From a virus (lineage: Duplodnaviria > Caudoviricetes): a stretch of 36,252 bases of DNA. Under the pieces are notes generated by a model that saw only the letters and a program-made list of their open reading frames with translations, was not told where the DNA came from and did no database searches. Below are positions 1 to 31,379 of the stretch, piece after piece (position 1 is the first letter of the stretch; each line of letters starts with the position of its first letter). The translations under genes were made by a program, and so were the position numbers. The DNA lies in the IMG/VR virus record IMGVR_UViG_3300038379_000967, positions 1 through 36,252 of that record. One strand, written 5' to 3'.

Positions 1-1131
1 TCAGCCGGAGCGTTGCCCTTCCGTTGCCGTGGCCGGGTCCGCCAGGGTCGCCAGGATGGCCCGACCGCCGGCCGCATCAGCATCAATCCAGGCTGCGTAG
101 GATCGCCTCAGGACGTGCCAGTCCCGGTGGCCGAGCTGGGACGCCACCCACATGGGGTTCTCGCCAGCGGAGAGGAGCTGGGAGGCGTAGGTGTCACGGG
201 TGGAGTACGGCCGCCGGTAGCGGATGCCCGCCCGGCGCAGGAGCGGAATCCACCGTTTCCGGATCGAACTGTCGCTGACCCACGGCTTCCCGGTGAGGGG
301 GTCGTGGAAGATCGCGCCGCCCGCGAGGAACGAAAGGGCCTTCTGGCGCTGCAGGGCGGCCCGGGCCGGCGGCAGCAGGATCACGTCCCGGACGCCCGCG
401 GCGGTCTTCGGGCCCTTCCGGACCCCGCCGGCCACGTTCTCCCGCACCGCCACGATGCCCCGGCGCCAGTCCACGTCCGCCCAGGCGAGGGCGATGAGCT
501 CGCCGGTCCGCAGCCCCGACCAGCAGGCGAACTCGATCAGGTTGCCGAAGCCGGGCGCCGCGGCCGCGACCAGGGCGGCGATCTCCTCCCGGGTGAACGG
601 GTCCGGCTGGTGCTGGCTGACGGTGCCCTCGATCTTCTGGCCCTGGAAAGGCGAGGCGGCGATCTGCTCGTCCTCGACGGCCCGGTCGCACACCTGGCGG
701 AGCGGGATCAGCAGGTTGTGCAGGCGCTTTCGGGAGACCCGGCGCTTCTCGACGAAGTCGCGGATGTGGCGCCAGCGGAGCGCCTGGATGTGCAGGGTGC
801 CGAAGGCGGGCACGAGCTGGGTGGTGACGGTGTTGTAGTAATCCCGGTAGGTCGAGGGCGCCGCCGTGGGCTGGATCCGCTCCAGCCAGTCCGTCAGCAG
901 GGCGCCGATGGTGTGCCCGACGTGGTACTTCGACTCGGGGTAGTGCTTCTCGTAGACCCGGAACAGGTCTAGGTCGCTGGTGCACTCGTCGAGCGCGGCC
1001 TTAAGGAGCTCAGCCTTTGCGCGATTGAGCGGGGTGTCTCGCCACTTGAGGACTTCCCGGCGACGTTCCCCGTGGAACGTGTAGCCGACCTGGAGCCGGC
1101 CGTTGACGATGCGGATTCCCCGCGTGCCCAT
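1..1131 (-). CDS. int: Tyrosine recombinase (phage integrase) with N-terminal arm-binding domain
   Basis: SGLRTGE (R), GPKT (K), YSTR (H/YxxR), LGH, SYAAW (catalytic Y); terminal position in the prophage. Confidence 0.96.
   Translation of the reverse strand: MGTRGIRIVNGRLQVGYTFHGERRREVLKWRDTPLNRAKAELLKAALDECTSDLDLFRVYEKHYPESKYHVGHTIGALLTDWLERIQPTAAPSTYRDYYNTVTTQLVPAFGTLHIQALRWRHIRDFVEKRRVSRKRLHNLLIPLRQVCDRAVEDEQIAASPFQGQKIEGTVSQHQPDPFTREEIAALVAAAAPGFGNLIEFACWSGLRTGELIALAWADVDWRRGIVAVRENVAGGVRKGPKTAAGVRDVILLPPARAALQRQKALSFLAGGAIFHDPLTGKPWVSDSSIRKRWIPLLRRAGIRYRRPYSTRDTYASQLLSAGENPMWVASQLGHRDWHVLRRSYAAWIDADAAGGRAILATLADPATATEGQRSG
11..30. promoter_or_regulatory. Putative integrase arm-type sites (two CGTTGCC, 11-bp period) inside the int 3' end
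   Basis: CGTTGCC at 11 and 22; same pair and spacing at 35459 and 35470. Confidence 0.7.
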
Positions 1132-3014: not shown

Positions 3015-3232
3015 CGGGATCTCCGGTGCTGGTCAGCGTTGGGGCACGTGCTCCAGTGGGGCACGTGACGGCCCTGTTCGAACTCGTCGTCATCGGGCTG
3101 CACCGAGTGGGCGTCGCAGGGCATGTTCTTCCCCTTGGCCGTGGGCAGCCAGATGATCTGCGCCCGGCAGGAGCGGCAGCGGGTGATGCGGCGCTCGTGG
3201 GTCTCGTTGGTTTCGTCGGCGTCGAAGCTCAC
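3011..3232 (-). CDS. Small putative Zn-binding phage protein
   Basis: GTG 3232 coupled to ATPase stop; CRSC...IIW..T.KGKNMPCD...HWSTCP. Confidence 0.75.
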   Translation of the reverse strand: MSFDADETNETHERRITRCRSCRAQIIWLPTAKGKNMPCDAHSVQPDDDEFEQGRHVPHWSTCPNADQHRRSR

Positions 3233-4887
3233 TGGAACAGCTCCTCGCTGGCGCGCAGCTCCCCGCGGCCGGTAACCAGCTTCAGGCTCCGCAGCCGGCC
3301 CAGGTACTTGGTCCACGTCCCACTGCCCAGCACCAGGCGCGAGCGGGCGGCGCACTGGTGCGTGCTCATCGACTTCGGATAGACCGCGAGCAGCGTCTCG
3401 AAGATGCGGCGCTCGCCACCGCCGCCCAGCCAGTCGGCCCAATAGCGGCGCAGGGCCTCGCCCGTGGGCAGCGGCTCGAACGGTCCGACCGCCTTGAGTC
3501 CCGCCGGGGTGATCCGGAGCGTCTCGCCGCCCTCGACCAGTCCGGCGGACCGGAGCGCGCCCAGGTACTTCGTCCAGGTGCCGCTGCCGCGGATGAGCTG
3601 GGCGAGGAGGGCCAGGCGCTGCTGGGACAGGCCAGCCGGGAATTGGGCCAGGGCGATCAGGATGCGGCGCTTGCCGTCCTTGCTGGCCGGGCCGGGGGCC
3701 GGGCTACCAGCGTGCCCGTTCATCCTGATGGGCGGTTTCGGCCTGTCATCCTGATAGGTGGCGTGCGCCGGCGGGATGTTGGGCGCCGGGGTCTCGTCCG
3801 GTCCCATGCCGGTCCGCTCGGCCAGCTGGGCCTTGATGGCCTCCGGGAGAATCTTCAGCCAGTCGGCCGCCTGCTCCGTGGCGCTGTTGCGCCCCTTGAA
3901 GTGCCCTTCGCGGTAGCCCTGCTCGTACCCGGCAGTGAAGCCGGCGTCATAGGCCGACTGGATCGCGGCCGGATCAGGGGCAGAACTATGGCGTTCTTGT
4001 GCCACATTTATGCCAGAGTTCTCGGGCTCGTCGGCAGCCAGCAGCGCCCGGAGCTCGCCCACGTCGAGAGAGGCGGCGGCCCGCGGCTCCTCGATGACCT
4101 CGCCATCCTCCGGGGCCCGGGACGAGTCGAAGGTGCGGATCGCCGGGAACGTCCGGCGCTCGAGCAGCCCGGCGTCAGGGGCCCAGAGCCAGCCCTCGCC
4201 GCGCTTCAGGCGCGCCAGCGTGTTCAGGACCTCCCGGCCGGCCGTCTCGTCGCCCTGGCCCTGTATCCATGCCTCGATGGCCTTCCGGTCCTGGGGTGCC
4301 ATCAGCTTCATGGCGATCAGGGTGTTCGCCTGGGTGAGGACGTTCTTGCTGAGCACCGCCGGCCGCTGGGTGATGAGCGTGACCCGGAAGCCCTTGATGC
4401 GACCCCGGCGCACGATGCGGTCCATGTTGCCCAGCATCCGCCGGCACTCCGGCAGCGGGTTCTGCGGCATGAACTCGTCGGCCTCGTCCACGACCAGGTG
4501 CAGCGGCGCCTTGTTGATCCGGTAGACCGCCTCGGCGAAGCGCTCCACGAAGCGGTGCCGCTCGGAGAGGAGCAGTTCGGACAGGTCGATGACGGCCGAG
4601 GCGCCCTTGCCGATCAGCCACTCGGCGACCTTCCCCGCGTCGCCCTCGGCCAGCGGCACGTCGCCGTGCTCGCCGCCGATGACCGCGATGGGGAAGCCCG
4701 GCGTGTCATCGGCCATGGAGCGCAGGCCCCACCACGCGCCGGTGGGGTCCAGGACGATGACTCGGCGGTTCGCCTCGAGGAGCCGCTCGACCAGCCCCTT
4801 CGCGGCGTAGGTCTTGCCGCTCCCTGTGCGCCCGACGATGGCCAGGTGCGTGCTCATGATCTCCAGCGGCACTGCTGCCTTGCTCAT
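3229..4887 (-). CDS. HerA/FtsK-superfamily (DUF87-like) ATPase with two tandem C-terminal winged-helix repeats
   Basis: Walker A GRTGSGKT, LDPTG, Walker B LVVDEAD, RRGR..G, ITQRP; GSGTWTKYLG.LRS occurs twice. Confidence 0.9.
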   Translation of the reverse strand: MSKAAVPLEIMSTHLAIVGRTGSGKTYAAKGLVERLLEANRRVIVLDPTGAWWGLRSMADDTPGFPIAVIGGEHGDVPLAEGDAGKVAEWLIGKGASAVIDLSELLLSERHRFVERFAEAVYRINKAPLHLVVDEADEFMPQNPLPECRRMLGNMDRIVRRGRIKGFRVTLITQRPAVLSKNVLTQANTLIAMKLMAPQDRKAIEAWIQGQGDETAGREVLNTLARLKRGEGWLWAPDAGLLERRTFPAIRTFDSSRAPEDGEVIEEPRAAASLDVGELRALLAADEPENSGINVAQERHSSAPDPAAIQSAYDAGFTAGYEQGYREGHFKGRNSATEQAADWLKILPEAIKAQLAERTGMGPDETPAPNIPPAHATYQDDRPKPPIRMNGHAGSPAPGPASKDGKRRILIALAQFPAGLSQQRLALLAQLIRGSGTWTKYLGALRSAGLVEGGETLRITPAGLKAVGPFEPLPTGEALRRYWADWLGGGGERRIFETLLAVYPKSMSTHQCAARSRLVLGSGTWTKYLGRLRSLKLVTGRGELRASEELFQ

Positions 4888-5417
4888 GCTCCGACGCTCC
4901 GGTTGCGGCGGACGGATTCGCGAATCTTGCGGACGTGGTCCGCCGTGAACTTCTTCCCGGTGAAGTGGTGGCGGGCATGCTCCGCCTGGCTGGGTAGCAC
5001 TTGCAGGTTCGCCGGGTCGTTGTTCCGCTTGTCCCCATCCAGGTGATGCACGACCTCGCCGGGCAGCAGCTTCCGACCCAGCGCCCGTTCGGCGATGACC
5101 CGATGGGCATGCCTACCACCGAGCTTGATGTACGACTTCCCGGCGCCTCGCCCACGGAGCCGATCGGCGCGCGCGGCGACGGTTGCCCTTGCGACGGTGG
5201 CGTTGTGGTCCGGCGGGTTCTTCGCCATGAACCCACAGCGCCGCGAGCAGTACACCTGGCCCGGGTACTTCCGGGCAACGGCGAACTCCGCCCCGCACTG
5301 GGCGCATTGGCGCAGGCAGAGAAGCCGGCGGGGATCGCGCTTGTACCCGGGCACGTGGCCCGTCTTGCCCACGATCGCGACGTGAGTCGCCATGATGTCG
5401 AGGGGGATGGGCTTCAC
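4884..5417 (-). CDS. HNH (homing-type) endonuclease with CxxC/CxxxC Zn finger, fused to a stub of the ATPase N-terminus
   Basis: HRVIAERALGRKL.PGEVVHHLDGDKRNNDPANLQV...H..HH; CAQC and YCSRRC. Confidence 0.9.
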   Translation of the reverse strand: MKPIPLDIMATHVAIVGKTGHVPGYKRDPRRLLCLRQCAQCGAEFAVARKYPGQVYCSRRCGFMAKNPPDHNATVARATVAARADRLRGRGAGKSYIKLGGRHAHRVIAERALGRKLLPGEVVHHLDGDKRNNDPANLQVLPSQAEHARHHFTGKKFTADHVRKIRESVRRNRSVGA

Positions 5418-14767: not shown

Positions 14768-14958
14768 TGAGCGGGGGATGGCAAGGCCAGACCGGCGCCA
14801 ATCACCCGGCGTGCGCGCTCAAGGGCTACCAGGTCGACGAGATGCGCCGGCTGCGGGCGCAGGGCCTGAAGCTGCGCGAGCTGGAGAAGATCTTCGGCTA
14901 CAGCATCAGCGGCATCAGCCGGATCCTGCGCGGGCAGCGCCATGGCCAAGCGAACTGA
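14767..14958 (+). CDS. Small helix-turn-helix DNA-binding protein
   Basis: G.NHP...L....V.EMR.L...G...RELEKIFG.S.S.ISRILRG; coupled start. Confidence 0.7.
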   Translation: MSGGWQGQTGANHPACALKGYQVDEMRRLRAQGLKLRELEKIFGYSISGISRILRGQRHGQAN

Positions 14959-15048
14959 GGCGGCGGTGGTCGGATGGCGGCAAGTTGGGCCCCGCACGGA
15001 GCACCCGGACGGCCTTAGCCGGCCGCCGCCTCAGACGGGGAGGGAGGA

Positions 15049-15426
15049 GTGATGACAACGTACGTGACCAACGTCCGGCTCTGGCTGCGGGGCTTCGGCC
15101 GCTTCGACGAGATTGCCTTCAAGGCGGGCTGGTCCGGAAACCAGCTGCGCTGGCGGCTGCTCTACGCGCTCAACTACGGCACCCGGGTGCTGACCGGTGG
15201 CGCCTGCGTGTCCTGGTCGCGGTGGTGGTACGAGCGGCGGCGGAAGTACGGCCATGCCGGCTTCATGACCCGGCTGCTGAATCACCTGGAGGAGAACCAC
15301 GGCGCGCGGGCTGGCGGCGCGCTCTGGGGCACGACGGACACCCGGGGCGCGGTAGCTGTTGGGCTGGTGTTCTGGGTCCTCGTCCTGGTCCTGGTGGTCC
15401 GCCTGGCCTGGCGGGTGCTGACGTAA
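15049..15426 (+). CDS. Hypothetical protein with C-terminal transmembrane helix
   Basis: SD GGAGG; AVAVGLVFWVLVLVLVV; stop overlaps the terS start. Confidence 0.7.
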   Translation: MMTTYVTNVRLWLRGFGRFDEIAFKAGWSGNQLRWRLLYALNYGTRVLTGGACVSWSRWWYERRRKYGHAGFMTRLLNHLEENHGARAGGALWGTTDTRGAVAVGLVFWVLVLVLVVRLAWRVLT

Positions 15427-15917
15427 TGGCAACCCCGCGCAACGGTCTCACCGATAGCCAGCGGCTGTTCGTCGCGCGCTACTGCGTGCACCTGGAGGCG
15501 AAGCGCGCCGCCGAGGAAGCCGGCTACAGCGCGCGCAACGCGAAGCGGGTGGGCTACCGGCTGCTGCACAGCCCGAAGATCGCCGCGGCCATCCAGGAGC
15601 ACCAACGCACCCTGGCGCAGCGCGCGGAGATGGACGAGAAGTGGGTACTCGGCAAGCTGCGGGAGAACGTCGAGCGCTGCATGCAGGCGGAGCCGGTCCT
15701 CGATCGGGACGGCCAGGAGACTGGCCAGTACCGCTATGACTCCGGCGGAGCCATCCGGGCCCTGGAACTCATCGGCAAGCACTTTGCCATGTGGGTGGAC
15801 CGGGTCCGGGTGGACGAGCTGGAGCAGCTGAGCGACGAGGAGCTGGATGAGCGGATCGCCGATCTCGATCGACGAGCGGCAGCGGCTGCAACGCGTTCGC
15901 CTACGCCTACGCATTGA
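15426..15917 (+). CDS. terS: Terminase small subunit
   Basis: LT..QRLFV..Y.....AK.AA..AGYS...A...G.RLL..P.I; RALELIGKH; start ATG 15426. Confidence 0.92.
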   Translation: MATPRNGLTDSQRLFVARYCVHLEAKRAAEEAGYSARNAKRVGYRLLHSPKIAAAIQEHQRTLAQRAEMDEKWVLGKLRENVERCMQAEPVLDRDGQETGQYRYDSGGAIRALELIGKHFAMWVDRVRVDELEQLSDEELDERIADLDRRAAAAATRSPTPTH

Positions 15918-16605
15918 GCGCGAACGCCGTGGTCGCCGCCGCAAGCTCTGGACGTACTTCCCCGACGCGGGGCCGTTGCGCCGTGAGCTCTACCCGAAGC
16001 ACCTGGAGTTCTTCCGACTCGGCGCGAGCCACGAAGAGCGGTGCTTCATGGCCGGTAACCGAATCGGCAAGACCGAGTCGGTGGGCTGCTACGAGCTGGT
16101 GCTCCATCTCACCGGCCAGTATCCAGCCTGGTGGGAGGGCTTCCGGTTCACGCGGCCGATCAAGGCCTGGGCCTGCGGGCAGACCTCCGAGACCGTTCGC
16201 GACATCCTCCAGGCGAAGCTCCTGGGACCGGCTGAGGACCGAGGCACGGGAGTCATCCCCGGCGACACCATCATCCGGATGCGTGCCCGCTCCGGTCTGT
16301 CCGACATGGTCGACGTGGTCAGCATCCGGCACGTCACCGGCGGCACCAGCAAGCTCGGCTTCCGGTCCTACGACCAGGGCCGCAAGGCCTTCGAGGGCAC
16401 CGAGCAGGACGTCATCCTCCTGGACGAGGAGCCGCCGTTCGACATCTACGGCGAATGCCTCATCCGCACGGCCAGCACGGTCCCTGGCCAGCGCGGCGGC
16501 ATGATCATGGCGACCTTCACCCCCCTGCAGGGGCTGTCCGAGACGGCCCTGTACTTCCTGCCGCACCTGGCTCCGCCGGATCTCGCGGCCACCCCCACGA
16601 TGTAA
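15847..16605 (+). CDS. terL: Terminase large subunit, N-terminal ATPase part (P22 gp2-like)
   Basis: ERCFMAGNRIGKT (Walker A), HLTG.YP, ILLDEEPP (Walker B), TFTPLQG (motif III); stops before the nuclease domain. Confidence 0.92.
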   Translation: MSGSPISIDERQRLQRVRLRLRIERERRGRRRKLWTYFPDAGPLRRELYPKHLEFFRLGASHEERCFMAGNRIGKTESVGCYELVLHLTGQYPAWWEGFRFTRPIKAWACGQTSETVRDILQAKLLGPAEDRGTGVIPGDTIIRMRARSGLSDMVDVVSIRHVTGGTSKLGFRSYDQGRKAFEGTEQDVILLDEEPPFDIYGECLIRTASTVPGQRGGMIMATFTPLQGLSETALYFLPHLAPPDLAATPTM

Positions 16606-16617
16606 CTGGAGAACCCG

Positions 16618-17031
16618 ATGCGCTACGAAGGTGACGTGATTCGTGCCCCGAAGCTCGAGGCGGATGTGGACGGCGACCGGCTGGTCCTGCTCGGCAAACC
16701 CCGGGTGGGCTTCGGCGTGTGGGCGGTGCTGCTACCGCCCGACCTGGTCCTGCAGGCGGCGCGCCTCGACGAGCAGCTGATCATCGAGGGCTTCGACCTG
16801 CCCGCCGGCGCGCAGACCTACGGGCGGACGCTGTACTTGCGCAACACCACGCCGGTGGTCCACGCCCTCCATGCGATCGCCACGGTGGCCTATCAGCGGG
16901 TGGGCCAGGAGGCGCCGCCGGCTCCCGCTGCTCCTACCACGCCGCCAGAGAGTCCCCCGGAGAGTCCGCCGGAGGCCGGCAGGGCCGGCAGGGCCGGCAG
17001 GGCAGGCAGGGCCGCCACCCGCCGCGAATGA
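16618..17031 (+). CDS. Hypothetical protein inserted between the two terL halves
   Basis: Own SD GGAG; stop overlaps the ATG of the terL C-terminal part; low-complexity tail. Confidence 0.7.
   Translation: MRYEGDVIRAPKLEADVDGDRLVLLGKPRVGFGVWAVLLPPDLVLQAARLDEQLIIEGFDLPAGAQTYGRTLYLRNTTPVVHALHAIATVAYQRVGQEAPPAPAAPTTPPESPPESPPEAGRAGRAGRAGRAATRRE
16942..17010 (+). repeat. Tandem 12-bp (PPES, ~x3) and 9-bp (AGR, x4) coding repeats
   Basis: CCGCCAGAGAGT-like units, then GCCGGCAGG x3 and GCAGGCAGG. Confidence 0.85.
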
Positions 17032-17750
17032 GCAAGGTCGTTGTCACCGCCGGCTGGGACGATGTCCCGCACCTCGCGGCCGAGGAGAAGGCGCGATTGC
17101 TGGCGGGCACGCCCCCGTACCTCCGGGACGCCCGGTCCAAGGGCATCCCGACGGTCGGGGCGGGGGCCATCTACCCGCTGCCCGAGGAGGACATCGTGGT
17201 CGACGACTTCGTCCTCCCGCGCCACTGGCCCAAGGGCTACGGCCTCGACGTGGGCTGGAAGGCCACGGCGGCTGTGTGGGGCGCCTGGGACCAGTCCCAG
17301 GGCGTCGACTGCATCTACCTGTACTCGGAGTACAAGCGCGGCGTCGCGGAGCCCCCCGTCCACGTCCAGGCGATCCGCGCACGCGGTGAGCCGCTGCTCG
17401 GGGCCATCGACCCCGCCTCTCGTGGGCGCGGCCAGCGCGACGGTGAGCGCCTGTTCCAGGACTACCAGGACCTCGGCCTGCAGATCTTCAAGGCGCCGAA
17501 CGCCGTGGAAGCCGGGCTCTTCGAGGTGTGGGAGCGGCTCACCACCGGCCGCCTGAAGATCTTCCGGTCGATGGTCCAGACGCTTCAGGAGCTCCGGCTG
17601 TACCGGCGCGACGAGCGGGGCCACCTGGTCAAGGAGAACGACCACCTCATGGATGCCATGCGCTACCTGGTGATGATGGCGCCGCAGGTGATCAGCTGGC
17701 ACCCGGATCGCGAACCGACGCGGGTCGTCGGCACTGTCAACCCACGATGA
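17028..17750 (+). CDS. terL: Terminase large subunit, C-terminal part (linker/lid plus RNase H-like nuclease)
   Basis: MSKVVVTAGWDDVPHL...RDARSKGIPT.G.G.IY; GLDVGW; IDPAS; DHLMDAMRY. Confidence 0.9.
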   Translation: MSKVVVTAGWDDVPHLAAEEKARLLAGTPPYLRDARSKGIPTVGAGAIYPLPEEDIVVDDFVLPRHWPKGYGLDVGWKATAAVWGAWDQSQGVDCIYLYSEYKRGVAEPPVHVQAIRARGEPLLGAIDPASRGRGQRDGERLFQDYQDLGLQIFKAPNAVEAGLFEVWERLTTGRLKIFRSMVQTLQELRLYRRDERGHLVKENDHLMDAMRYLVMMAPQVISWHPDREPTRVVGTVNPR

Positions 17751-21432: not shown

Positions 21433-22065
21433 GTGGCGACCGAGCTGGAGATCGCCAATCAGGCCCTCCTCCTTCTGGGGGAGGGCCTGATCACCTCGGG
21501 GCAGCTGGCCACGCCCGACGACGCCAAGTCCCGGCTGGTGGCGAACCTGCTGACGATGTCCCGCAAGGCCGCGCTGCGGGACTGCAAGCCCAACTGCGCC
21601 CGGGCCTACGCGGATCTCACCACCGCCGGCGTCCAGGTCCACCCGGACCACGCCTACACGTTCGTCCTGCCGACCGACTGCCTGCGGGTCCTGACGGTGT
21701 TCCCGGGCCTGTCCACCGACGTGTCCCGGCTCACCCAGGGGCGCCAGGTGGTCACCCGCTGGCGCATCGTCACCGGCAGCGAGATCGCCCTGGACGAGCC
21801 GCAGGCCTGTGTCGAGTACGTGAAGAACATCGCGACCACGGCCTTCGATCCCATGATGGACGACGCCATGGCGCACTACCTGGCCTGGAAGATGGCCGTG
21901 CCGCTGACCGAATCGCGGACGAAGCGGACCGAGATGGCCCAGGCCTACGCGGCCGCCCGGGAGCTGCTCCGGCAGACCGATGAGCAGGAGGGCATCACCG
22001 ACCAGTTCGACGACGCCACCCGGCTGCAGACCGCCCGCCACGGGTCCAACTACGGAGCCTGGTGA
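21433..22065 (+). CDS. Tail adaptor / tubular protein A-like
   Basis: EI.NQAL..LG...I; Y.F.LP.DCLRV; FDP....A.A..LA...A.PLT. Confidence 0.85.
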   Translation: MATELEIANQALLLLGEGLITSGQLATPDDAKSRLVANLLTMSRKAALRDCKPNCARAYADLTTAGVQVHPDHAYTFVLPTDCLRVLTVFPGLSTDVSRLTQGRQVVTRWRIVTGSEIALDEPQACVEYVKNIATTAFDPMMDDAMAHYLAWKMAVPLTESRTKRTEMAQAYAAARELLRQTDEQEGITDQFDDATRLQTARHGSNYGAW

Positions 22066-24908
22066 TGCCGCGGGCTCGCGTCCTGATCAGCGACCTCACC
22101 GGGGGCGAGGTCTCGCCCCGGGTCCTGGCACGGGCTGACCTGCAGCGGTACGCGTCCTCGAGCAAGTACTCCCGCAACTGGGTGGTGACTCAGCAGGGCG
22201 GGATCCTGCTGCGCCGTGGGCTGCAGCACCTGGGGCTGTCGGCCGCCTCCCAGGTCACGCCCCTGCCGGCCGTCGAGATGATCCCCTGGACGTCGTCCAA
22301 CGACGCCGAGCCGGACATCACCTTCGAGATCGTCGGCAACACGCTGCGCGGCTGGACCACGAGTGGCCTGATTACCTCGGGCGGGTCCGCGTACACCGTC
22401 GCCCTGCCCATCGCCAACTTCGCCAGCGCGCCCATTCAGTACGCCCAGCAGGGGCGGCTCCTGGTCCTGACCAACGGCCGGGACGCGCCGCTCTTCGTGA
22501 CCGTGAATGGCACGACCAGCTGGACCGTCACCAGCCCGCCGCCGACGCTGTTCCCGAAGCGGAACTTCAACGACTCGCGCTCGCCGCCCCGGCAGAACGC
22601 CATCAACGACGTGACCTTCGTGGGCTTCGCCGCGGGCAACAGCTACCTGGTCTACGTCGGCGGCAAGGTCATCAAGGAGCGGGTGAGCCGCCTGACGGGG
22701 CTGCCGATCAGAGGTGTCCAAGGCATCCTCAACTCGGAAAATGCGCCGCGCCGGTTCGTCTACTCCGCGGCCTCCACGGTCACCAACGAGCAGCGGATCA
22801 AGGACGCCATCCTCGAGTCCCCCCTGGTGGAGAACGAGGCGGACGTCACCGTGGCCTTCCAGGCCGGCACGACCTACCGGATCACCATGTCCGGGGCCGC
22901 TGGTGGCGTCGAGGTCAGCCTGGTGGCCGCTGCTGAGTCCGCGACCCTCCGCATCGAGCAGGCCACCAACGCGGCGGGCCGCGGTGGCGAGGAGGCCGCC
23001 TGGTCGTACCCGACGGTGGTCACCAACCTCGGGGTGTACTACCAGTGCATCCTGGCGCACGTCTCGACGGCGACCGCGCCGGCGGCGGCACCGACCCTCT
23101 GGACCCCGCTGCCCGGCCCACCGGCCTGGGAGGCCGTCCAGCCGAGCGCCGCCTGGAGCGCCACCAGCATCTCCTACGGGCCCGGCGACCGGGGCTTCCC
23201 GCGGTGCGCGCTGTTCCACGACCAGCGGCTGATTCTGGCCCGCTCCCGGGACTGCCCCCGAACCATCTGGGGCTCCCAGATCGGCGGCCCCACCAACTTC
23301 GTCCTGGGCGTCGAGGACGACGAGGCCTGGTCCCGGGACCTGGACAGCTTCGAGTCCCCGGACATTGCCTGGCTCGCCAGCCAGCAGGGCCTGGTGGTGG
23401 GCACCAGCCGGGGCATTCACGTGGTGGACGCCGAGGTCTCCCTGACCCCGACCGACGGCGCGGTGGTCGCCCAGAGCAACGACCGGTGCGAGCCCCTCAT
23501 GCCGGCCGTCGTGGGCGACGAGATCGTCTTCGTGGCCCGTGGGCGCCGCCAGATCCGCTCCATGCGCTGGAACCGGCAGTCCGGGCCATTCGAGACCCAG
23601 GAGATGTCCGCCCTGGCCGAGCACCTGGCCCGGTACCGGATCGCGCGCCTGGTCTACGCGCACACCCCGCAGCCAGTCCTGTACGCCCACACCGAGCATC
23701 CCGGCATGGTTCTGGCGGTGCCCTACGCCAGGGCCACCGGCCTGCTGGCGTTCTGTCCCCTGACCCTGGACGGGACGGTGCTGGCCATCACCGTCCGCGA
23801 GGACGGCGACGGCAGCGACGAGCTCTGGGCCGTCATCAACCGGGGCGGCTACGTCAGCATCGAGCGCCTGCCTTACCCGGTCACCGACGCCCCGGTGGAC
23901 TCCCCATCGGCCACGGCCACGAAGCACCTGGACGGGTGGGTGGTGCGGTCGGACACCGCCGGGACGGTCTCCGGGCTGAACCACCTGATGGGCAAGACGG
24001 TCACGATCCTGAACAGCGCGGGCGCGGTCCAGGGCAGCGCCACGGTGGTCGACTCCGGCAGTATCCCGCCTTCGACTCCGGTGACGATTTCCGAGCCCAG
24101 CTTCGAGCTCGCCGGCACCTGGACCTACACGTCCGCGTCACGGACGGCCGGCGCGGCGCGCACCGGCGGCTTTGGCGCCAACCTGGCCCCGCCGGCTGTG
24201 TCGTATGCCTCCGGCTCGGTGCTGTCGGCCAACGTCACCGTCACGCCCGGCAAACGGTACACGGTGTCGAACTGGTACCGGCGCGGCAACGCCAATGCCC
24301 ACTCCTACGCTTATCCGGTCATCGTCTACGTCTACAACGGCAGCGGGGTCCTGATTGCGACCCATTCTTTCGCCCACGTCGATGCGGGTGACCTGTTGCC
24401 GGTGAGCTTTACGGCGGCCTCGGTCACCTTCACCGCGCCGCCGACGGCGGCCTACATCCGGATCTCGAGCGAACTGATCAGCTCCGGGGCCACCAACGTG
24501 ATGCACGTGGATGACTGGCTGGTCCTCGAGGGCACGGCCGGTGACGGAGTCATCACGGCCAGCGGCTCGAACCTGGTCATCGGAGTGCCGTTCCTCGGCA
24601 AGGCCGTCCTGGTGGAGCCGGTGGTCGGCAACCCGACCGGGCCATCGATGGGCAACCCGAAGCGGTGGTCGGGCGTGTTCGCCCGGCTGTTCCAGTCAGC
24701 CCTGCCGAAGATCAACGGCGAGCGGCCGTCCGACTACGCGCAGGCGGGCGGCGCCTATCGCGCCAATCCGGGCGCGCTGCGCTCGGGCGACTTCAAGGTG
24801 AACACCCAGGGCTGGGCCGACGGCGGGCTGACGATCGAGCAGGACTTGCCGCATGCGACCCAGATCGTGGGCCTGTTCGGCGACCTGGGCGTCGGCGTAG
24901 GAGAGTGA
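22062..24908 (+). CDS. Tail nozzle / tubular protein B-like with inserted CBM5/12-like and CBM4/9-like modules
   Basis: TGGEVSP....R.DL..Y; N......GG...R.G; GFP....FH.QRL; IW.S..G...NF; LD.W; inserted modules visible. Confidence 0.85.
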   Translation: MMPRARVLISDLTGGEVSPRVLARADLQRYASSSKYSRNWVVTQQGGILLRRGLQHLGLSAASQVTPLPAVEMIPWTSSNDAEPDITFEIVGNTLRGWTTSGLITSGGSAYTVALPIANFASAPIQYAQQGRLLVLTNGRDAPLFVTVNGTTSWTVTSPPPTLFPKRNFNDSRSPPRQNAINDVTFVGFAAGNSYLVYVGGKVIKERVSRLTGLPIRGVQGILNSENAPRRFVYSAASTVTNEQRIKDAILESPLVENEADVTVAFQAGTTYRITMSGAAGGVEVSLVAAAESATLRIEQATNAAGRGGEEAAWSYPTVVTNLGVYYQCILAHVSTATAPAAAPTLWTPLPGPPAWEAVQPSAAWSATSISYGPGDRGFPRCALFHDQRLILARSRDCPRTIWGSQIGGPTNFVLGVEDDEAWSRDLDSFESPDIAWLASQQGLVVGTSRGIHVVDAEVSLTPTDGAVVAQSNDRCEPLMPAVVGDEIVFVARGRRQIRSMRWNRQSGPFETQEMSALAEHLARYRIARLVYAHTPQPVLYAHTEHPGMVLAVPYARATGLLAFCPLTLDGTVLAITVREDGDGSDELWAVINRGGYVSIERLPYPVTDAPVDSPSATATKHLDGWVVRSDTAGTVSGLNHLMGKTVTILNSAGAVQGSATVVDSGSIPPSTPVTISEPSFELAGTWTYTSASRTAGAARTGGFGANLAPPAVSYASGSVLSANVTVTPGKRYTVSNWYRRGNANAHSYAYPVIVYVYNGSGVLIATHSFAHVDAGDLLPVSFTAASVTFTAPPTAAYIRISSELISSGATNVMHVDDWLVLEGTAGDGVITASGSNLVIGVPFLGKAVLVEPVVGNPTGPSMGNPKRWSGVFARLFQSALPKINGERPSDYAQAGGAYRANPGALRSGDFKVNTQGWADGGLTIEQDLPHATQIVGLFGDLGVGVGE

Positions 24909-24909
24909 C

Positions 24910-25353
24910 GTGGCGGTAGCAGCAGTCATCGGGGCGGTGGGCGCGGTGGCTGGCCTGATCGGCTCGAGCAAGGCCTCGAAGGCGGCCAAGCGGGCGGCCC
25001 GGATCGAGGCGGCAAACGAGAAGATCGCCACTGACGAGCGCATCAAGCAGATCTCGCAGGAGGAGCGCACCCTCGCCGGGGTCACCCGGGCCCGGGCTGC
25101 GGGCGCCGGCTTTGTCATCACTCAGGGTTCGGTGCTCAACCTCCTGGCCGAGCAGGCCCGGGAGTTCGAGCGGGAGCGGAAGATCACCGCCCGCGTCGGC
25201 GCCTCGAAGGTCGCGACCGCCCTGGCCGGCGGCAAGGCGGTCGCCCAGCAGTACAAGGCCCAGGGAGTCGGGAACCTGTTCGCGGGACTGTCCCAGGCTG
25301 CGCTGCTGGCCCAGCAGGCCGGGCTGTTCACGAAGAGCGGGGGCGGCGACTGA
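24910..25353 (+). CDS. Small ejection (internal virion) protein
   Basis: Ala/Gly-rich hydrophobic N-terminus; RA..AGAG.....GS.L motif; position after the nozzle. Confidence 0.75.
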   Translation: MAVAAVIGAVGAVAGLIGSSKASKAAKRAARIEAANEKIATDERIKQISQEERTLAGVTRARAAGAGFVITQGSVLNLLAEQAREFERERKITARVGASKVATALAGGKAVAQQYKAQGVGNLFAGLSQAALLAQQAGLFTKSGGGD

Positions 25354-26846
25354 TGGAACTCCCCCGGTACCGCTCCCAAGCCATCCCCCAGCTCGCCTCG
25401 CAGTCGCCCGAGCAGGCGGCGGCCGAGGCCGGCTCGATGGGCCTCGCGCTCGCCAAGGGGCTGGACGTGGTGGCCCAGGTCACCGCGAGGATTCAGAGCG
25501 CCGAGGCCGAGGCAGCGGCGTCGGCGGCCCTCACCGACGTGGAGCTGAAGACCAAGGCCTTCCTGGCCGACCCCCGCTGGAGCCAGGTCGAGCTGACCGA
25601 CGCCAAGGGCACCGCGGTGGCCACCAACGAGGTGCTGTCGGACGAGTGGAAGCGGTTCTCCGCCGACCTGCTGGCGCAGGCGCCGAAGATCCGCGACCGC
25701 AACGCCAAGTTCAAGTTCGAGCAGGGGCGGAAGCAGCTGCTGGCGGCGGCCGAGGTCGAGGTCACCGGCCAGGTGCGGAGCCTCATGGTCGAGCGGGGGA
25801 AGGCCCTGACGGACTACAACGCCGCCAACCGGGCCCAGATCGGCGACTTCGCGGGCGCCATGCAGGCCTACGAGGAGGGCATGGCGAGCGGCCTGTACTC
25901 GACCGCCGAGTACATCGATCGCGCTCAGCAGCTGCAGATCCTCCAGGTCGAGGACGAGTACCTCGGCCAGATCCGTCCAGGTGCCCAGGACGTGGACCTG
26001 CCGCAGCTGGCCACCGAGATCCTGGACGACGGGCGCCTGCCGGCCGCCAACCGCCGGGCCCTGTTCCGGTCGATCGTCGCCGAGACGGAGCGCCGGGACC
26101 GCGCCGAGAGCAAGGCCATGACCGAGCGGCAGCGGGGCAACGCTGTCGCCCTCTGGGAGAACCTGGACGCGCTCACGATCGCCGACATCACCGGCACCGA
26201 TCTCCGCCCCGAGGACAAGACCGCGCTGATCAAGGCGAAGCGCGCGCAGAACCTTGAGGGCGTCGACGACCCGACCGCCATTGCAGAAGTGAACCGGCTG
26301 ATGGTTGGTCTCGGCGACGGCAGCTCCACCCGTGACGACGTACAGGCCGCCATCACCCGGAACATGGAGCAGGGCAAGTTGTCCGCTCAGGGCGGCGCGA
26401 AGTTGCTCACGGGGCTCGCCCGCACGGACGACGCGTTCTGGCAGGACGGCCGGTTTGATCGACTCCTGCGCGAGGGCGAGCTCGCGATCAACAAGGGCGT
26501 CGCCTCCGAGCAGCTGATCACCATGTTCGCCAGGGAGGAAGCCCAGCAGCGCGCCGCCCTGGCGGTCGAATGGCGACAGGCCTTCCTCACCGCGAAGATG
26601 GACGGCGGCATCGGCTTCAACGCCGAGCAGTGGTACCGCGAGAACCTCCCGAAGTACCTGGAGCGGTCCAAGGCGATCTCCGCCGCGCCGGCCAGCGGCC
26701 GGTACTACGGGTATGGCGTGTTCGACAAGGAGCAGCGGCTAGATCGGCTGGCGACGAAGAAGAAGCTCGACGAGGCCCTCGCGGCCGGCACGTTGACGAA
26801 GCTCCAGCACCAGGACGCCTACCGGGAATTTCAACTGGACCAGTAG
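25353..26846 (+). CDS. Ejection (internal virion) protein, helical
   Basis: M.LPRY N-terminus; Ala/Gln-rich helical composition; position. Confidence 0.7.
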   Translation: MELPRYRSQAIPQLASQSPEQAAAEAGSMGLALAKGLDVVAQVTARIQSAEAEAAASAALTDVELKTKAFLADPRWSQVELTDAKGTAVATNEVLSDEWKRFSADLLAQAPKIRDRNAKFKFEQGRKQLLAAAEVEVTGQVRSLMVERGKALTDYNAANRAQIGDFAGAMQAYEEGMASGLYSTAEYIDRAQQLQILQVEDEYLGQIRPGAQDVDLPQLATEILDDGRLPAANRRALFRSIVAETERRDRAESKAMTERQRGNAVALWENLDALTIADITGTDLRPEDKTALIKAKRAQNLEGVDDPTAIAEVNRLMVGLGDGSSTRDDVQAAITRNMEQGKLSAQGGAKLLTGLARTDDAFWQDGRFDRLLREGELAINKGVASEQLITMFAREEAQQRAALAVEWRQAFLTAKMDGGIGFNAEQWYRENLPKYLERSKAISAAPASGRYYGYGVFDKEQRLDRLATKKKLDEALAAGTLTKLQHQDAYREFQLDQ

Positions 26847-28361
26847 ATGGCAGGCCAGGACAACTATTTCGAGCGCATCCGATCACGGCCTTACGACCAG
26901 GCCGCCGAGCGCGCGCGCAACACGCTGGTGCCGGCCGGCGTCGCCGGCGCCCCGGGTGCGTTCGACCCGAAGGCCACCGTGCCCGCCCTGAAGCAGGTCG
27001 GGGAGTGGAGCAAGCAGGTTGCCCTCGGCGCCGTGCAGGGGCCGCTCGACGCCGTGAACGCGATGGCGAAGAAGGTCAACACGCCACTGAACGAGGCCTA
27101 CAAGGCCGTCACCGGCGCCGCGCGCGGGCCGCTGATCGACGTGAACGACGAGGGCCAGCGCATCACCCCGGAGCTCCCCGGCCAGGACCCCGAGTCGCTC
27201 GCCGGCGGCCTGTCCCGCGGGATCTCGACCTTCATGACGCTGTACGGCCCGCTCTCGGCCCAGCTCGCCGTGGCGGGGGCGGGCGGTGCCCTGGGCAGCA
27301 TGGCCGCCGGCGCCTTCGCCGACATGATGGCCTTCGAGAACAAGACGGGCACGCTGGCCGACGTGGCCCGGTCTCTGGGCTTCGATAACGAGCTCACCCA
27401 GGCCCTGTCCGGGGAGCTGTCCGACAGCGAGTGGGAGGCCTCCCTGAAGGCCGCCCTGGAGGGGGCAGGCCTCGGCCTCCTGGGACCCGCTTATGGCGCC
27501 CTCAGGTCCGGCCTGCGGCGATGGCCAGAGTACGCACCGGCCTTTCGTAAGCGACTGGCGACTGGTCCGATAGTCCCTGGGTCCCCAGCGGCCCAACGGG
27601 GCAGCGTCGGTGGTGGCGACCAGGGCCAGGGTGCGGCCGACCAGGCGCTCCCGGTCTCCGCCGAGTTTCAACCGTACGAGGCGAAGCTGACGCCGGAAGC
27701 ACGGACCAACCTGCGTGCGATGCGTGCCGATGCCGAGGCGTACCTCCCCAAGTACAAGACCATCCTGCAGGAGATCGCCAAGACGGCCACCGGCGATGCC
27801 GGCAACGCCCTGGTCGCCGACGTGAAGGGCTGGGATCGCGTCACGCAGAAGGTTGTCATGGAGGAGGGCGGCGACGCTGCCGGGATCCGCGACTTCGTGC
27901 GCGGGACGATCCTGGTGAGGAGCCGGGCCGAGGCCGAGCAGGTGTGGAAGGACCTGCAGGCGAAGTTCAAGCCGGCGGCGAACGCGCCTCGCACCAGCCT
28001 ACTCGACGGCCGGCCCGACACACTCGGCTATGCCGACCTGAAGATGAACATCATCGGCCCGAATGGGCGGCAGTACGAGGTTCAGGTCACCACGCCAGAG
28101 CTCTGGGCGGCGAAGGAGGGCGAGGGGCACAAGCTCTACGAGAGGTGGCGCGACATCGTCGGCCGGGTCCAAGCCGAGCAGCGCCCGCTTAACTCTGAGG
28201 AGCTGGCAGAGAAAGCCTCAATCGAGAACCAGAGCCGTGAGTTCTACGCGGCAGCCTTCGACTTGGCGGCCTTCTCGGGCGGGAAGCCCTTGAGCAATAC
28301 CGCGCCCAAGTCAAAGCGCTTGAACGAACCGTCCGCCAGTTCCTCGAAGCAATCCGAATGA
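26847..28361 (+). CDS. Putative ejection protein with C-terminal RelA/SpoT-like (toxSAS-like) domain
   Basis: Gly/Ala-rich N-half; VKGWDRVTQK, IRDFVRGTI, GYADLKMNI, YEVQV, GHKLYE. Confidence 0.85.
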   Translation: MAGQDNYFERIRSRPYDQAAERARNTLVPAGVAGAPGAFDPKATVPALKQVGEWSKQVALGAVQGPLDAVNAMAKKVNTPLNEAYKAVTGAARGPLIDVNDEGQRITPELPGQDPESLAGGLSRGISTFMTLYGPLSAQLAVAGAGGALGSMAAGAFADMMAFENKTGTLADVARSLGFDNELTQALSGELSDSEWEASLKAALEGAGLGLLGPAYGALRSGLRRWPEYAPAFRKRLATGPIVPGSPAAQRGSVGGGDQGQGAADQALPVSAEFQPYEAKLTPEARTNLRAMRADAEAYLPKYKTILQEIAKTATGDAGNALVADVKGWDRVTQKVVMEEGGDAAGIRDFVRGTILVRSRAEAEQVWKDLQAKFKPAANAPRTSLLDGRPDTLGYADLKMNIIGPNGRQYEVQVTTPELWAAKEGEGHKLYERWRDIVGRVQAEQRPLNSEELAEKASIENQSREFYAAAFDLAAFSGGKPLSNTAPKSKRLNEPSASSSKQSE

Positions 28362-28459
28362 TCCGGCGCCACCCAGAACTTGCGCTTGCGGTCCGTCCAG
28401 CCCCACTGCTCCCAGTCGGCACCGGGCTTTGTCGGGTAGCTGTTGGTTTGCTTGTCCAC
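28244..28459 (-). CDS. 71-aa antisense ORF, candidate immunity protein or antitoxin
   Basis: Overlaps the 3' 118 nt of the RelA-like gene; TAGAAT 6 nt before its GTG; aromatic and charged composition. Confidence 0.65.
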   Translation of the reverse strand: MDKQTNSYPTKPGADWEQWGWTDRKRKFWVAPDHSDCFEELADGSFKRFDLGAVLLKGFPPEKAAKSKAAA

Positions 28460-28535
28460 GTCGCAATTCTACACCCAGGGGTGTCCCCATGACGGGGCGA
28501 TTTCGCATAACGGGCGTGCCCGGAGGCAACCCCCT

Positions 28536-31379
28536 GTGAGCCGAATCAAGGGCTTAAAGCCCCCGAAGCGCGTCCCGCCTGCGCCGCCTGGACCGCAGGG
28601 CGCCGGCCTGCCGCCGCCCGCCGGGGGTGCCACCGTGGTGACGCCGCCCGGAGCACCACCCGGCGGCCTTCCACCCGGGTCTCCGCCTGGCGCGCCGCCG
28701 CCCGCCACGGGCACGGAGAACCTCATCCGCCGGGCCCAGGAGCCGCCCGCCGATCCCCTGCGGCTCACGTCCGACAGCGATCCGGTCCTCGACCGTGCGG
28801 CGAATCCGCAGCCCATGGAGCGCCCACGCAGCGAGTTCCGGAACATCAACCTGGAGCGGCTCGACACCGAGGAGGGCGTCAACCAGGTGCTGGACGCGGT
28901 GTCGGTGTCGACCGAGAACGCCGGGTACAACCCGCGGCCGCTGACGGAGACCGCCGAGAACGCCGGCGCCCTCGACGAGCGAGCCATGCTTGGCACCCTG
29001 ATGCGCCGGAAGCCCGGCCAGACCCTGAACGACGCCCAGCTCACCCGGGCCCGGCAGCTGATGGTGGCGAGCGCCGAGCAGCTCCAGGACTGGGGCCGGG
29101 CGCTCCAGGTGAAAGGTCGGGCCAACGTCACCGACCTCGAGCTCATCGAGTACCAGCGGGCACTCCAGCGGCACACGGTGCTGCAGACGTCCGTCCAGGG
29201 CGCGATTCGCGAGACCGCGCGGGCGCTCAGTGCCTTGCGCCTGGTCCCCGACCGGCTGGATCCCCAGGCCATCGAGGCGGCCCTCCAGGGCGGTGGTGGC
29301 CCGGACGCGATCTTCCAGAAGGCCCTGCTCATCGCCGACGCCCCCACCGTGGAGGAGGCCTCGAAGAAGGCCGGCGCCGTCAGCTGGCTGGGCCGGGCCG
29401 CCGAGAACCTCGTCTACTACCGGACCATGAGCCTGCTCTCGGGCCCGCGTACGCACGTGGTCAACGCCGTGAGCAACTCCCTGGTAAACCTGCTGGCGCT
29501 CCCGGAGCGGGCCCTGGCCGGCGCCATCAGCCAGACCCTGGGCTCCGGCCAGGTGTACGCGGCCGAGGCCGGGCAGATGTTCTACGGCGACGTGAACAAC
29601 CTGCTGGACGCCTTCCGGCTGGCCGGGAAGGCCTGGAAGACTGGCGACAGCGTCTTCGGCCAGACGAAGATCGAGACCGATACCACCATCCACTCGGCCA
29701 GCGAGTACGGACTCGAGCACGGCGACCCGATGGCCATGGCTTACGACTGGGCGGCGTCCGCGGTGAGCGCGCCGGGCCGGGCCCTGACGGCAGCGGACGA
29801 GTTCTACAAGACCCTGGCCTTCAACCAGCAGGCCCGGGCGCTGGCGTACCGGGTGGCCCGCGGGGAGGGGAAGACCGGGCAGGAGCTCGCCGAGCGCATC
29901 GAGGAGATCCTCGCCGGGCCCAACCAGGAGAAGATCCTCGAGGGGCTGAACGCCCAGGGGCTGACCGGCGACGAGCGGGACCTGGCCTTCATGGCCAAGC
30001 TCTCGGCCGAGGAGCGGCAGTTCCAGCAGCTGTACCGGGAGTCGGTGCAGTTCTCGCGCTACCAGACCTTCTCGGACAGCATGGAGAGCGGGATCGGCAA
30101 GGGCCTCGCCCAGGTGCACCGGTCGAGCCCGGCGGTGCGCCTGATCGTCCCCTTCTACCGGACCCCGGCCAACATCCTGAGCTATGCCGTCGAGCGGTCG
30201 CCGATGTTCGCGGCGGCGCCGAACTTCTGGCGCAGCATCCAGAAGGGCGGGGCGGCCCGGGACGAGGCCATGGCCCGGGCGGTCATGGGCTCGGCCATCG
30301 CCGCCTGGGCGATCTCCGCGTCCACGGACGGCACCCTCAGCGGCGCCGGCCCGTCGAACCCGCAGCTGCGGAAGGTGTACGAGGCCGCGGGGTGGAAGCC
30401 CTACACCCTCACCGTGGGCGACGAGGCCATCAACTACGACCGCCTCGAGCCCGTCACCACCCCGCTCGCGGTGATCGCGGACATGGCCGAGGCCTACCGC
30501 TACGCCACCAGCGACAAGCAGCGCGAGCACATCCTGGTCGTGATGACCGCGAGCCTCGCGGAGGCCATGAACGACAAGGCCATGCTGACCGGCCTGTCGG
30601 ACCTGGTGGACGCCCTCGCGGCGGCGCAGTCCGGCGGTAAGTCCGGGTTCACGGATCGCCTGGTGCAGAGCTTCCTGCCCTATTCGAGCTTCCAGCGTTC
30701 GGCGCGCAACGCCCTGGATCCCGAGCGGAAGCAGACTGAGGCCGGCGGTCCCCTGGAAAGCGCCCTCAACTACGTCCGCAACAGCATCCCGATCCCGGTG
30801 CTGTACGAGGACCTCCCGCCGATGGTGGACTTCTGGGGCGCGCCCATGGACTCCCAGGACTTCATCGGCCCGGACATGCTCTCGCCGTTCTACATGGCGA
30901 AGTACCAGGACGACGACGCCACCTACGCCCTGGCCCAGAACGGGGTGGCGCCGAGCGCCGTGCCCTGCGAGATGAGCGTCCAGGGGGTGCGGGTGGACCT
31001 GCACGAGCTCGACATCGGCAAGGGCACCGGACAGGCCTGCTACGAGTACCGCCAGCTGGTCGGCCAGGAGCGCCGGTCAGCCGTGCAGCAGGTAATCGGG
31101 TCCAAGGGCTACAGCGATCCCCGGGTGCGCGTGGGCGGCCCACAGGACGAGACGGCGACCGTCGTCACCCGCGGCGACCTCCTACAACTGGCCCTCTCCC
31201 AGGGCAAGCAGGCCGGCACCGCCAAGTTCGTGCAGAGGTACCAGGCCGCCGTGGAGCGCGTGATGGTCGGCGAGATGAGCAAGGTCCGCCCCGTCTCGCC
31301 CCCGCCGGCCTTCATCGAAAAGGGCCGCGACCGGGCCCGGATGTCCAAACCGGCCCCGGCCGGCGAGCCCAAGTTCTGA
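28536..31379 (+). CDS. Large ejection (internal virion) protein
   Basis: SD GGAGG before GTG 28536; NINL.R, SLLSGP.TH..N..SN, P.R.L.A.DEF.K, PF.RTP.NI, G.GP.....R......GW.PY. Confidence 0.85.
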   Translation: MSRIKGLKPPKRVPPAPPGPQGAGLPPPAGGATVVTPPGAPPGGLPPGSPPGAPPPATGTENLIRRAQEPPADPLRLTSDSDPVLDRAANPQPMERPRSEFRNINLERLDTEEGVNQVLDAVSVSTENAGYNPRPLTETAENAGALDERAMLGTLMRRKPGQTLNDAQLTRARQLMVASAEQLQDWGRALQVKGRANVTDLELIEYQRALQRHTVLQTSVQGAIRETARALSALRLVPDRLDPQAIEAALQGGGGPDAIFQKALLIADAPTVEEASKKAGAVSWLGRAAENLVYYRTMSLLSGPRTHVVNAVSNSLVNLLALPERALAGAISQTLGSGQVYAAEAGQMFYGDVNNLLDAFRLAGKAWKTGDSVFGQTKIETDTTIHSASEYGLEHGDPMAMAYDWAASAVSAPGRALTAADEFYKTLAFNQQARALAYRVARGEGKTGQELAERIEEILAGPNQEKILEGLNAQGLTGDERDLAFMAKLSAEERQFQQLYRESVQFSRYQTFSDSMESGIGKGLAQVHRSSPAVRLIVPFYRTPANILSYAVERSPMFAAAPNFWRSIQKGGAARDEAMARAVMGSAIAAWAISASTDGTLSGAGPSNPQLRKVYEAAGWKPYTLTVGDEAINYDRLEPVTTPLAVIADMAEAYRYATSDKQREHILVVMTASLAEAMNDKAMLTGLSDLVDALAAAQSGGKSGFTDRLVQSFLPYSSFQRSARNALDPERKQTEAGGPLESALNYVRNSIPIPVLYEDLPPMVDFWGAPMDSQDFIGPDMLSPFYMAKYQDDDATYALAQNGVAPSAVPCEMSVQGVRVDLHELDIGKGTGQACYEYRQLVGQERRSAVQQVIGSKGYSDPRVRVGGPQDETATVVTRGDLLQLALSQGKQAGTAKFVQRYQAAVERVMVGEMSKVRPVSPPPAFIEKGRDRARMSKPAPAGEPKF

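Follow-up and report, generated by a model that had tools for sequence, protein, structure and literature searches.

A gp16-like internal virion protein is, by homology, encoded in two pieces in the 36,252-nucleotide stretch of viral DNA analysed here (the window; IMG/VR record IMGVR_UViG_3300038379_000967), and its front half ends in a predicted RelA/SpoT-fold (RSH) synthetase domain whose gene is overlapped at its 3' end by a small antisense gene. From sequence comparison and modelling we consider it probable that this front half is packaged and injected, that its Tas1-like domain would convert ATP and ADP to (p)ppApp, and that the antisense gene encodes a Tis1/IapK-type inhibitor with its own host-polymerase promoter. 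Phage-borne (p)ppApp toxin-immunity systems are already known; no earlier description of an ejection-protein carrier with a nested antisense immunity gene came up in the literature searched. Two points go beyond the original prediction made for this DNA: the 504-aa gene is half of a split gp16, and antisense genes placed like this one are widespread among relatives, where most of them lie wholly inside the sense gene.

Source record and gene order

The record is classed as a provirus and as 61% complete. Its late and structural genes include terminase, T7-type portal, capsid, adaptor, nozzle and Rz-like spanin. From the integrase, excisionase, HTH regulator, T7-type portal, nozzle and Rz-like spanin we infer a temperate short-tailed phage of a Gram-negative host. 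Features are listed by window coordinates.

1..1131, minus strand: tyrosine integrase, in a record that also holds excisionase and HTH repressor-like genes
24910..25353, plus strand: small internal virion protein (T7 gp14 position; PHROG 418)
25353..26846, plus strand: 497-aa gene at the T7 gp15 position, without a family match and assigned by position only
26847..28361, plus strand: 504-aa gene, gp16-like N-terminal carrier with C-terminal RSH (Tas1-like) effector domain
26847..27611, plus strand: carrier half, aa 1-255, with QRGSVG at its end and homology to internal virion protein D (N-terminal part)
27447..27686, plus strand: low-GC3 stretch across the cassette junction
27648..28259, plus strand: predicted RelA/SpoT-fold nucleotide pyrophosphokinase domain, GYxD family
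28260..28361, plus strand: Ser/Lys/Pro-rich tail over the antisense gene, low-confidence in the model
28244..28459, minus strand: 71-aa antisense gene with GTG start, candidate immunity protein
28466..28471, minus strand: -10 hexamer TAGAAT, 6 nt before the GTG of the 71-aa gene
28536..31379, plus strand: gene for the C-terminal portion of the split gp16-like internal virion protein, its start put at 28536 on account of GGAGG at 28522-28526

The 504-aa gene lies within the late head-tail operon, flanked by PHROG internal-virion-protein genes, and no consensus promoter was found for it. It and the 71-aa antisense frame, with their 118-nt overlap, were present where they had originally been placed. 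No HD hydrolase (HD_4 or Aph1-type) was matched in this 61% complete record.

Elsewhere in the record, the terminase region (14778-17556) is unusual: the small-subunit domain occupies aa 224-297 in an ORF of 379 aa, and the ORF for the large-subunit ATPase has only 252 aa, is followed by short ORFs and is possibly split or interrupted. In the early region, a HerA/FtsK-like ATPase (3229-4887, minus strand) is accompanied by two HNH genes (1997-2746 and 4884-5417), and the nearby excisionase (1283-1780) gave a weak GIY-YIG match. The nozzle protein (22062-24908, 948 aa) exceeds its PHROG model in length; it matches CBM5/12 weakly at aa 318-347, and around aa 670-820 it has no annotation.

The RelA/SpoT-fold domain

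Five synthetase motifs were located in the predicted order: KGWDRVTQK (27825-27851), DFVRGTI (27891-27911), GYADLKMN (28026-28049), EVQV (28077-28088) and HKLYE (within 28113-28142). The expectation that profile and structure searches would recover the fold held for structures, whereas Pfam (including the PF04607 cut-off) and NCBIfam returned no match for the 504-aa protein or for its domain, aa 268-471. Some homologues of the domain do match PF04607. A PHROG 7625 match spans only aa 295-441, and no MuF or PAAR domain was matched in the 504-aa protein.

Tas1 was the top match of the domain in a PDB sequence search (E 1.6e-7). An AF2 model of the domain was built from 4 sequences (pLDDT 76.6, with the last 29 residues below 50), and Foldseek with this model again placed Tas1 first (E 1.4e-6, TM 0.56), followed by SaEAS at ranks 2-4, CapRel at 7 and 9, and Rel and SAS structures; the matches listed at E<=0.001 are RSH/SAS structures. 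CapRel, a tRNA pyrophosphokinase, is a weaker structural match than Tas1 and SaEAS. As judged from sequence and model, the domain is a RelA/SpoT homolog synthetase fold with Tas1 as its closest solved structure, in agreement with the original prediction of an RSH synthetase.

A profile search with the domain gave 2018 representatives at E<=0.001, of which the best 150 were listed. Among the matches listed (151 aligned domains), K327, R331, K335, D349, R352, G394, Y395, D397, E411, Q413, K423, H428 and Y431 occupy columns conserved at 95-100%; the catalytic Asp, the ExQ and the basic ATP-binding residues (D349, R352, E411, Q413, K327, R331 and K335) are all among them. The syn3 motif of the family is GYxD, with the Asp in 98% of the 151 aligned domains among the matches listed; the Arg of GYRD, found in 91% of the family among the same matches, is missing from the window clade, where A, S or V stands in its place. 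The window motif, GYxDxKxN (GYADLKMN), is neither SxH nor GxN. An unusual substrate had been proposed from its missing His; that argument fails, since GYxD is the family norm and Tas1 (GYSGVN) also lacks the His, and Apk enzymes have GxN where RSH enzymes have SxH (available text of PMC12226406). The same text gives Apk2 motif swaps that left product specificity unchanged, and the motifs are therefore poor predictors of product.

Pfam partners on 30 longer domain matches were ddrB-ParB, ART-PolyVal, LPD38, SLT, portal, MuF and eCIS. Separately, RelA/SpoT proteins weakly similar to the domain were seen in the Sinorhizobium phages phiM12, phiM19 and phiN3 and in a Paraglaciecola phage (KF381361.1, 146094-146492, and related records).

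Nested antisense genes in relatives

Many domain matches continue beyond the domain into a conserved Ser/Thr/Asn/Gly/Pro-rich stretch, and a nested Tis1/IapK-like antisense gene was predicted from this protein linker before DNA or fold was examined. Domain scans gave 65 viral loci and 80 of 85 metagenome loci; 148 records were examined, 49 were dropped with the domain end unaligned, and the 99 kept form 62 clusters at 90% identity. The antisense frame with shared third codon positions was open for at least 65 codons in 57 of the 62 clusters, against 279 of 1596 control positions taken elsewhere in the same genes; no long antisense frame was present in the other five. The clusters are related and are therefore not independent events. 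Open frames in three loci (L003, L063 and L066) are not members of the antisense family; these three, two ORFs with mis-picked starts and one without a start were excluded, and 51 ORFs were kept.

A Shine-Dalgarno match precedes 45 of the 51 ORFs, a count biased by its use in picking starts. TAnnnT, which was not used in picking, occurs exactly 19 nt upstream in 27 of the 51, where the next commonest spacing reaches 4. Forty of the 51 are fully nested in virion genes, 16 of them in genes that run more than 400 aa further; four overlap partly, like that of the window, and in seven the sense gene ends within 12 aa, which leaves the small gene almost free-standing. A linker profile at E<0.01 matched 72 of 99 long-tailed matches and 0 reversed sequences, some of the 72 perhaps being close to its seeds. 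When the small protein alone was used as query, all 36 viral loci found had a convergent domain (33 were already in the domain scan, and L192 appears to duplicate L088). No cultured phage in a 50,697-record set matched the family, and a search for other nested antisense genes in long carriers (176,757 nt) gave one unconvincing candidate besides the RSH slot.

In cellular genomes the small-protein search found six loci, two with the domain and four without. The orphan genes (L152:100-273, L153:1470-1664, L155:2322-2429 and L156:5995-6177), with no RSH domain nearby, come from Rhodospirillales, two Burkholderiales and a betaproteobacterium assembly; that in L152 adjoins tRNA-Glu, and that in L155 looks broken. 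Orphan copies are possibly host-kept immunity genes or prophage remnants. A recombinase was found in six of nine near-complete relatives and in none of the other three (three recombinase families, not each searched on every relative); a role in lysogens is thus common and may not be the only one.

Several layouts depart from the nested one. Two proteins (P0158 and P0188) each consist of two tandem copies of the small-protein family. In one clade (L035, L056, L091, L092, L094, L097, L098; P0046, P0047) the domain is C-terminal, portal-fused in P0046, with the small gene convergent and almost free-standing; in the tree this clade lies within otherwise overlapping clades, which may reflect un-nesting. 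In L051, L052 and P0020, the last portal-fused, the domain is followed by 653 aa without a long antisense frame.

Identity of the small-protein family

No NCBIfam annotation was obtained for the family, and Pfam and PHROGs gave only weak single-member matches; the ESM Atlas gave no match above 0.84, and a PDB sequence search with the family profile gave nothing significant. A family model from 42 sequences reached pLDDT 93. Foldseek with the small-protein model found no match. Compared with 48,161 chains, the family model ranked Tis1 (6ox6_B) first, a weak match (Z 3.8 and rmsd 4.2 over 59 aligned residues) that leads the next, unrelated chains by no more than 1 Z.

An unannotated Apk2-like module was seen in a cultured phage, Bordetella phage PHB04 (L003; MF663786.1, 7098-9363), in which a portal, a GYRD-type synthetase, a 69-aa gene and an annotated hydrolase stand in a row, the small gene in sense orientation. 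Against the antisense family, this small gene scored above 200 of 200 shuffles (z 3.4), with an hhalign probability of only 5.6%. Because Tis1 ranks first and the PHB04 small gene scores in this way, a Tis1/IapK-type role is likely for the antisense family of the relatives.

The fold comparisons bear also on the product of the window enzyme. With delivery and immunity as proposed, the chemistry could differ, the domain making (p)ppGpp or both alarmones, or pyrophosphorylating tRNA ends; we hold this to be unlikely, and it is the alternative that survives best. The SaEAS and CapRel ranks in the fold search speak for it, as do the difference of the window syn3 from the Apk GxN and the Apk2 motif swaps that switched no specificity (available text of PMC12226406), and SaEAS makes both alarmones while two other exported enzymes make only (p)ppGpp (available text of PMC12691689). 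Against it, Tas1 comes first by sequence and by fold, SxH is absent, the related GYRD enzyme of PHB04 has the small-gene-plus-hydrolase layout known for Apk2, and the small protein of the relatives ranks Tis1 first. We therefore retain (p)ppApp as the likely product.

The antisense gene of the window

The 71-aa ORF has 33 codons outside the sense gene. No TAnAAT other than its hexamer TAGAAT (28471-28466) occurs in the 36,252 bases, both strands counted, and the 6 bases between hexamer and start codon are the spacing of a leaderless transcript. A generic two-hexamer promoter scan found nothing, the -35 being poor. By a codon model trained on 15 window genes, the antisense frame scores best of the six, both in the window and in a related locus, L001, and these are the only two DNA copies found of the window-type small gene. 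The L001 counterpart is a 68-aa protein, 46% identical, with frame-keeping indels and a GTG start, preceded by TATAAT at the same 6-nt spacing. Over the non-overlapping part, codons with synonymous changes only number 3 in the antisense frame and 6 in the sense shadow frame. The 71-aa ORF thus looks like a real gene, and the separately expressible lysogen gene that had been proposed finds support in its codon frame, its -10 box, its L001 counterpart and the provirus class of the record. A short inverted repeat, GGGG-N3-CCCC, lies at 28477-28490, just upstream of the -10 box.

Homologues of the 71-aa protein were sought by protein search, and none were found; Pfam and NCBIfam gave no match and the PDB sequence search nothing significant. 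Compared with the antisense family of the relatives, it gave an hhalign probability of 0.06%, no HMM match, and a pairwise z of 1.3 with 17 of 200 shuffles reaching the score; a MAFFT alignment with the family was ambiguous. In the best pairwise alignments, which are not significant, the Cys and Asp/Phe of the window and L001 proteins fall in register with L030. What the ORF shares with the family is its frame, its size and its stop position relative to the domain (-19 nt). As no family alignment is significant, its role rests on position, frame, size and promoter, and it is by position a candidate immunity protein.

The gene could instead be real and yet not an inhibitor, either a lysogen-expressed moron (superinfection exclusion, for example) that has replaced the family gene, or the source of a transcript that silences the toxin gene by convergent transcription over the 118-nt overlap. 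The lack of significant family similarity and of homologues by protein search would fit such a gene, to which we give a low probability: frame, stop position and size are those of the family, no substitute HD hydrolase was found in the 61% complete record, and the Cys and Asp/Phe positions lie in register with L030, though not significantly. An inhibitor remains the preferred reading.

The split gp16-like carrier

Across 27447-27686, GC3 falls to 0.70-0.78 from 0.95-1.0 and codon adaptation is 0.46 against 0.79, which bears out a codon-usage shift reported near 27480-27600; homology places the junction somewhere from aa 255 (27611) to aa 268 (27648). In searches against small local databases, a profile comparison with 104 long proteins matched the N-terminal half to the front of internal virion protein D from CRP-114 (E 4.9e-13) and from ProddE (E 2.1e-10), and the product of the gene at 28536-31379 matched the back of the same two proteins (E 1e-23 and 2e-35). 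The latter gene also matches the back of six long proteins in which this RSH domain is internal. By FastTree, the window clade (support 0.996) joins four domain-holding long proteins, three of them among the six (0.97), and next two more of the six (0.88); a second tree is similar, and five of the six group beside the window clade in the trees. On this homology of both halves and this tree grouping, 26847-28361 and 28536-31379 are taken to encode one gp16-like protein in two parts, and the toxin domain and the antisense gene lie where it is divided. Homology to internal virion protein D together with the T7-like gene order identifies the carrier as gp16-like, as the expectation of an ejection protein had it.

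Carrier aa 1-255 recurs in five other proteins at 38-62% identity with varied C-terminal ends: ART-PolyVal (below its curated cut-off), GP88, two unnamed ends, or none, the N-half standing alone without effector in P0007. The same RSH domain sits on a more diverged N-half in P0001, P0003 and L001. The swapping of cassettes foreseen for related phages was thus observed, and a conserved carrier with variable effector domains in a late-gene context is what defines phage polyvalent or polymorphic virion effectors. DNA scans for the window-type domain or N-half matched only L001. Proteins of the gp16 type in T7-like phages are a class known to enter the cell, and packaging of the 504-aa front half is likely by this homology.

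A split-off front half might no longer be packaged, leaving the pair as a toxin-antitoxin or abortive-infection module of the lysogen. The stop codon and antisense promoter region do separate the gene from the gp16 core, and the N-half can stand alone without effector (P0007); we nonetheless judge this improbable, given that the toxin gene belongs to the late head-tail operon and a search showed no consensus promoter for it, that carrier halves at 38-62% identity persist alongside differing effectors, and that relatives fuse the same domain to gp16 cores, portals and MuF. A packaged front half is preferred. Sense read-through of the TGA at 28359 was rejected, because in each of the two sequences, window and L001, that frame meets another stop a short way on. 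That a 44-aa sense ORF (28358-28492) is the real small gene and the antisense ORF its shadow is very improbable: in the window and in L001 alike it is open and begins in an ATGA shared with the toxin stop, and it has more synonymous changes (6 against 3), but its codon score is -0.54 and its GC3 0.53 against +0.29 and 0.91 for the antisense frame, a frame lying opposite a true gene in the same register stays open for 44 codons in 120 of 139 control windows, the unique -10 box is oriented for the antisense gene, and an ATG beside the stop occurs only in L091 among the ten other short-tail loci listed.

Comparison with known systems

Apk2, a MuF-fused (p)ppApp synthetase accompanied by IapK/BcTis1 and Aph1, shares with the window a temperate-phage virion protein, a C-terminal Tas1-like synthetase and a small linked gene (available text of PMC10083569 and PMC12226406). 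Its carrier is MuF, whereas that of the window is a gp16-like ejection protein; iapK, often with aph1, follows the Apk2 toxin gene, whereas the small gene of the window is antisense, overlapping and under its own promoter; Apk2 is accompanied by an Aph1-type hydrolase, none being found in the 61% complete window record; and the syn3 signature of Apk1 and Apk2 is GxN, against GYxDxKxN. By carrier and gene layout the window gene falls outside Apk2, and by analogy it would work like MuF-Apk2 with IapK (available text of PMC10083569 and PMC5576092). Tas1/Apk1-Tis1 of the Pseudomonas aeruginosa T6SS (PDB 6OX6) supplies the closest solved structure for the window domain, and its Tis1 chain ranks first, if weakly, in the structural comparison of the antisense family of the relatives; Tas1 is delivered by PAAR and the T6SS, whereas the window gene stands in a phage late operon with no PAAR match and another gene layout.

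Phage polyvalent proteins with RelA/SpoT domains, as given in the available text of PMC5512222, have in common with the window a late-gene context and shuffling with ART-PolyVal, ddrB-ParB and LPD38. That text predicts that these domains alter host transcription and translation on entry, and names Spirochaete and epsilon-proteobacterial phages; the words 'antisense', 'opposite', 'overlap' and 'gp16' do not occur in its main text, nor 'antisense' and 'opposite' in the available text of PMC5576092. Unlike the polyvalent proteins described there, the carrier here is tied to gp16 and the post-domain linker encodes a second gene. CRP-114 and ProddE have the gene order of the window (adaptor, nozzle, small core, medium core, large core), and both halves of their internal virion protein D are homologous to the window genes; the window version is split in two, with toxin domain and antisense gene at the split. 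Among exported alarmone synthetases, SaEAS is the second-best structural match, and modular carrier and synthetase are alike; the carriers given in section 9 of PMC12691689 are WXG/LXG, XopAD, MuF, DUF4157 and Rhs/PAAR, plus Sec signals, with no ejection proteins among them.

Proposed mechanism and wider meaning

In the mechanism we favour, both gp16 halves would be made by late expression, and the front half would be loaded into the core and pass into the next cell, where (p)ppApp would be made and ATP and ADP drained. The inhibitor would come from a host-polymerase promoter facing against the late operon. Because this promoter is apparently independent of that operon, both the lysogen and the virion-producing cell would contain the inhibitor, which would appear, after a delay, soon after DNA entry in a newly infected cell. 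In that cell the nucleotide pulse would last until the phage DNA is transcribed, and sister lysogens would be immune. An inhibitor encoded antisense in the post-domain linker would keep toxin and antidote as one cassette, even midway in a virion protein of 1,000-3,000 aa, where no sense gene could follow the domain.

A wider reading, which we offer tentatively and regard as rather doubtful, is that many temperate phages inject a gp16-borne (p)ppApp toxin with its antidote nested antisense in the same virion gene, that a cell which destroys the infecting genome would stay poisoned, having received the toxin ready-made as protein but the antidote only in the form of DNA, that hosts keep orphan antidotes, and that some polyvalent-protein linkers are genes. 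If so, the system would be a dead-man's switch against DNA-targeting defence, released virions would be a weapon that spares lysogens, the answer of hosts would be the orphan antidote copies (four of six cellular-genome matches lack the toxin domain), and part of what passes for 'low-complexity Ser/Thr linkers' in phage polyvalent proteins would be genes so far overlooked.

Searches of the open full-text literature brought up no description of a phage virion gene with an immunity gene nested antisense within it. The role of toxins on phage virion proteins was stated to be unexplored in the Apk2 work (available text of PMC10083569). Since gp16-type carriers form part of a class that is known to enter cells, the injection hypothesis is open to direct test. 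The nested family would supply many naturally occurring pairs of protein-coding genes that overlap completely and have independent signals for promoter and ribosome site; free-standing relatives show that the small gene is real, and annotators would do well to check the opposite strand of polyvalent-protein linkers. Nesting would also explain how a toxin midway in a giant virion protein retains its cognate immunity gene.
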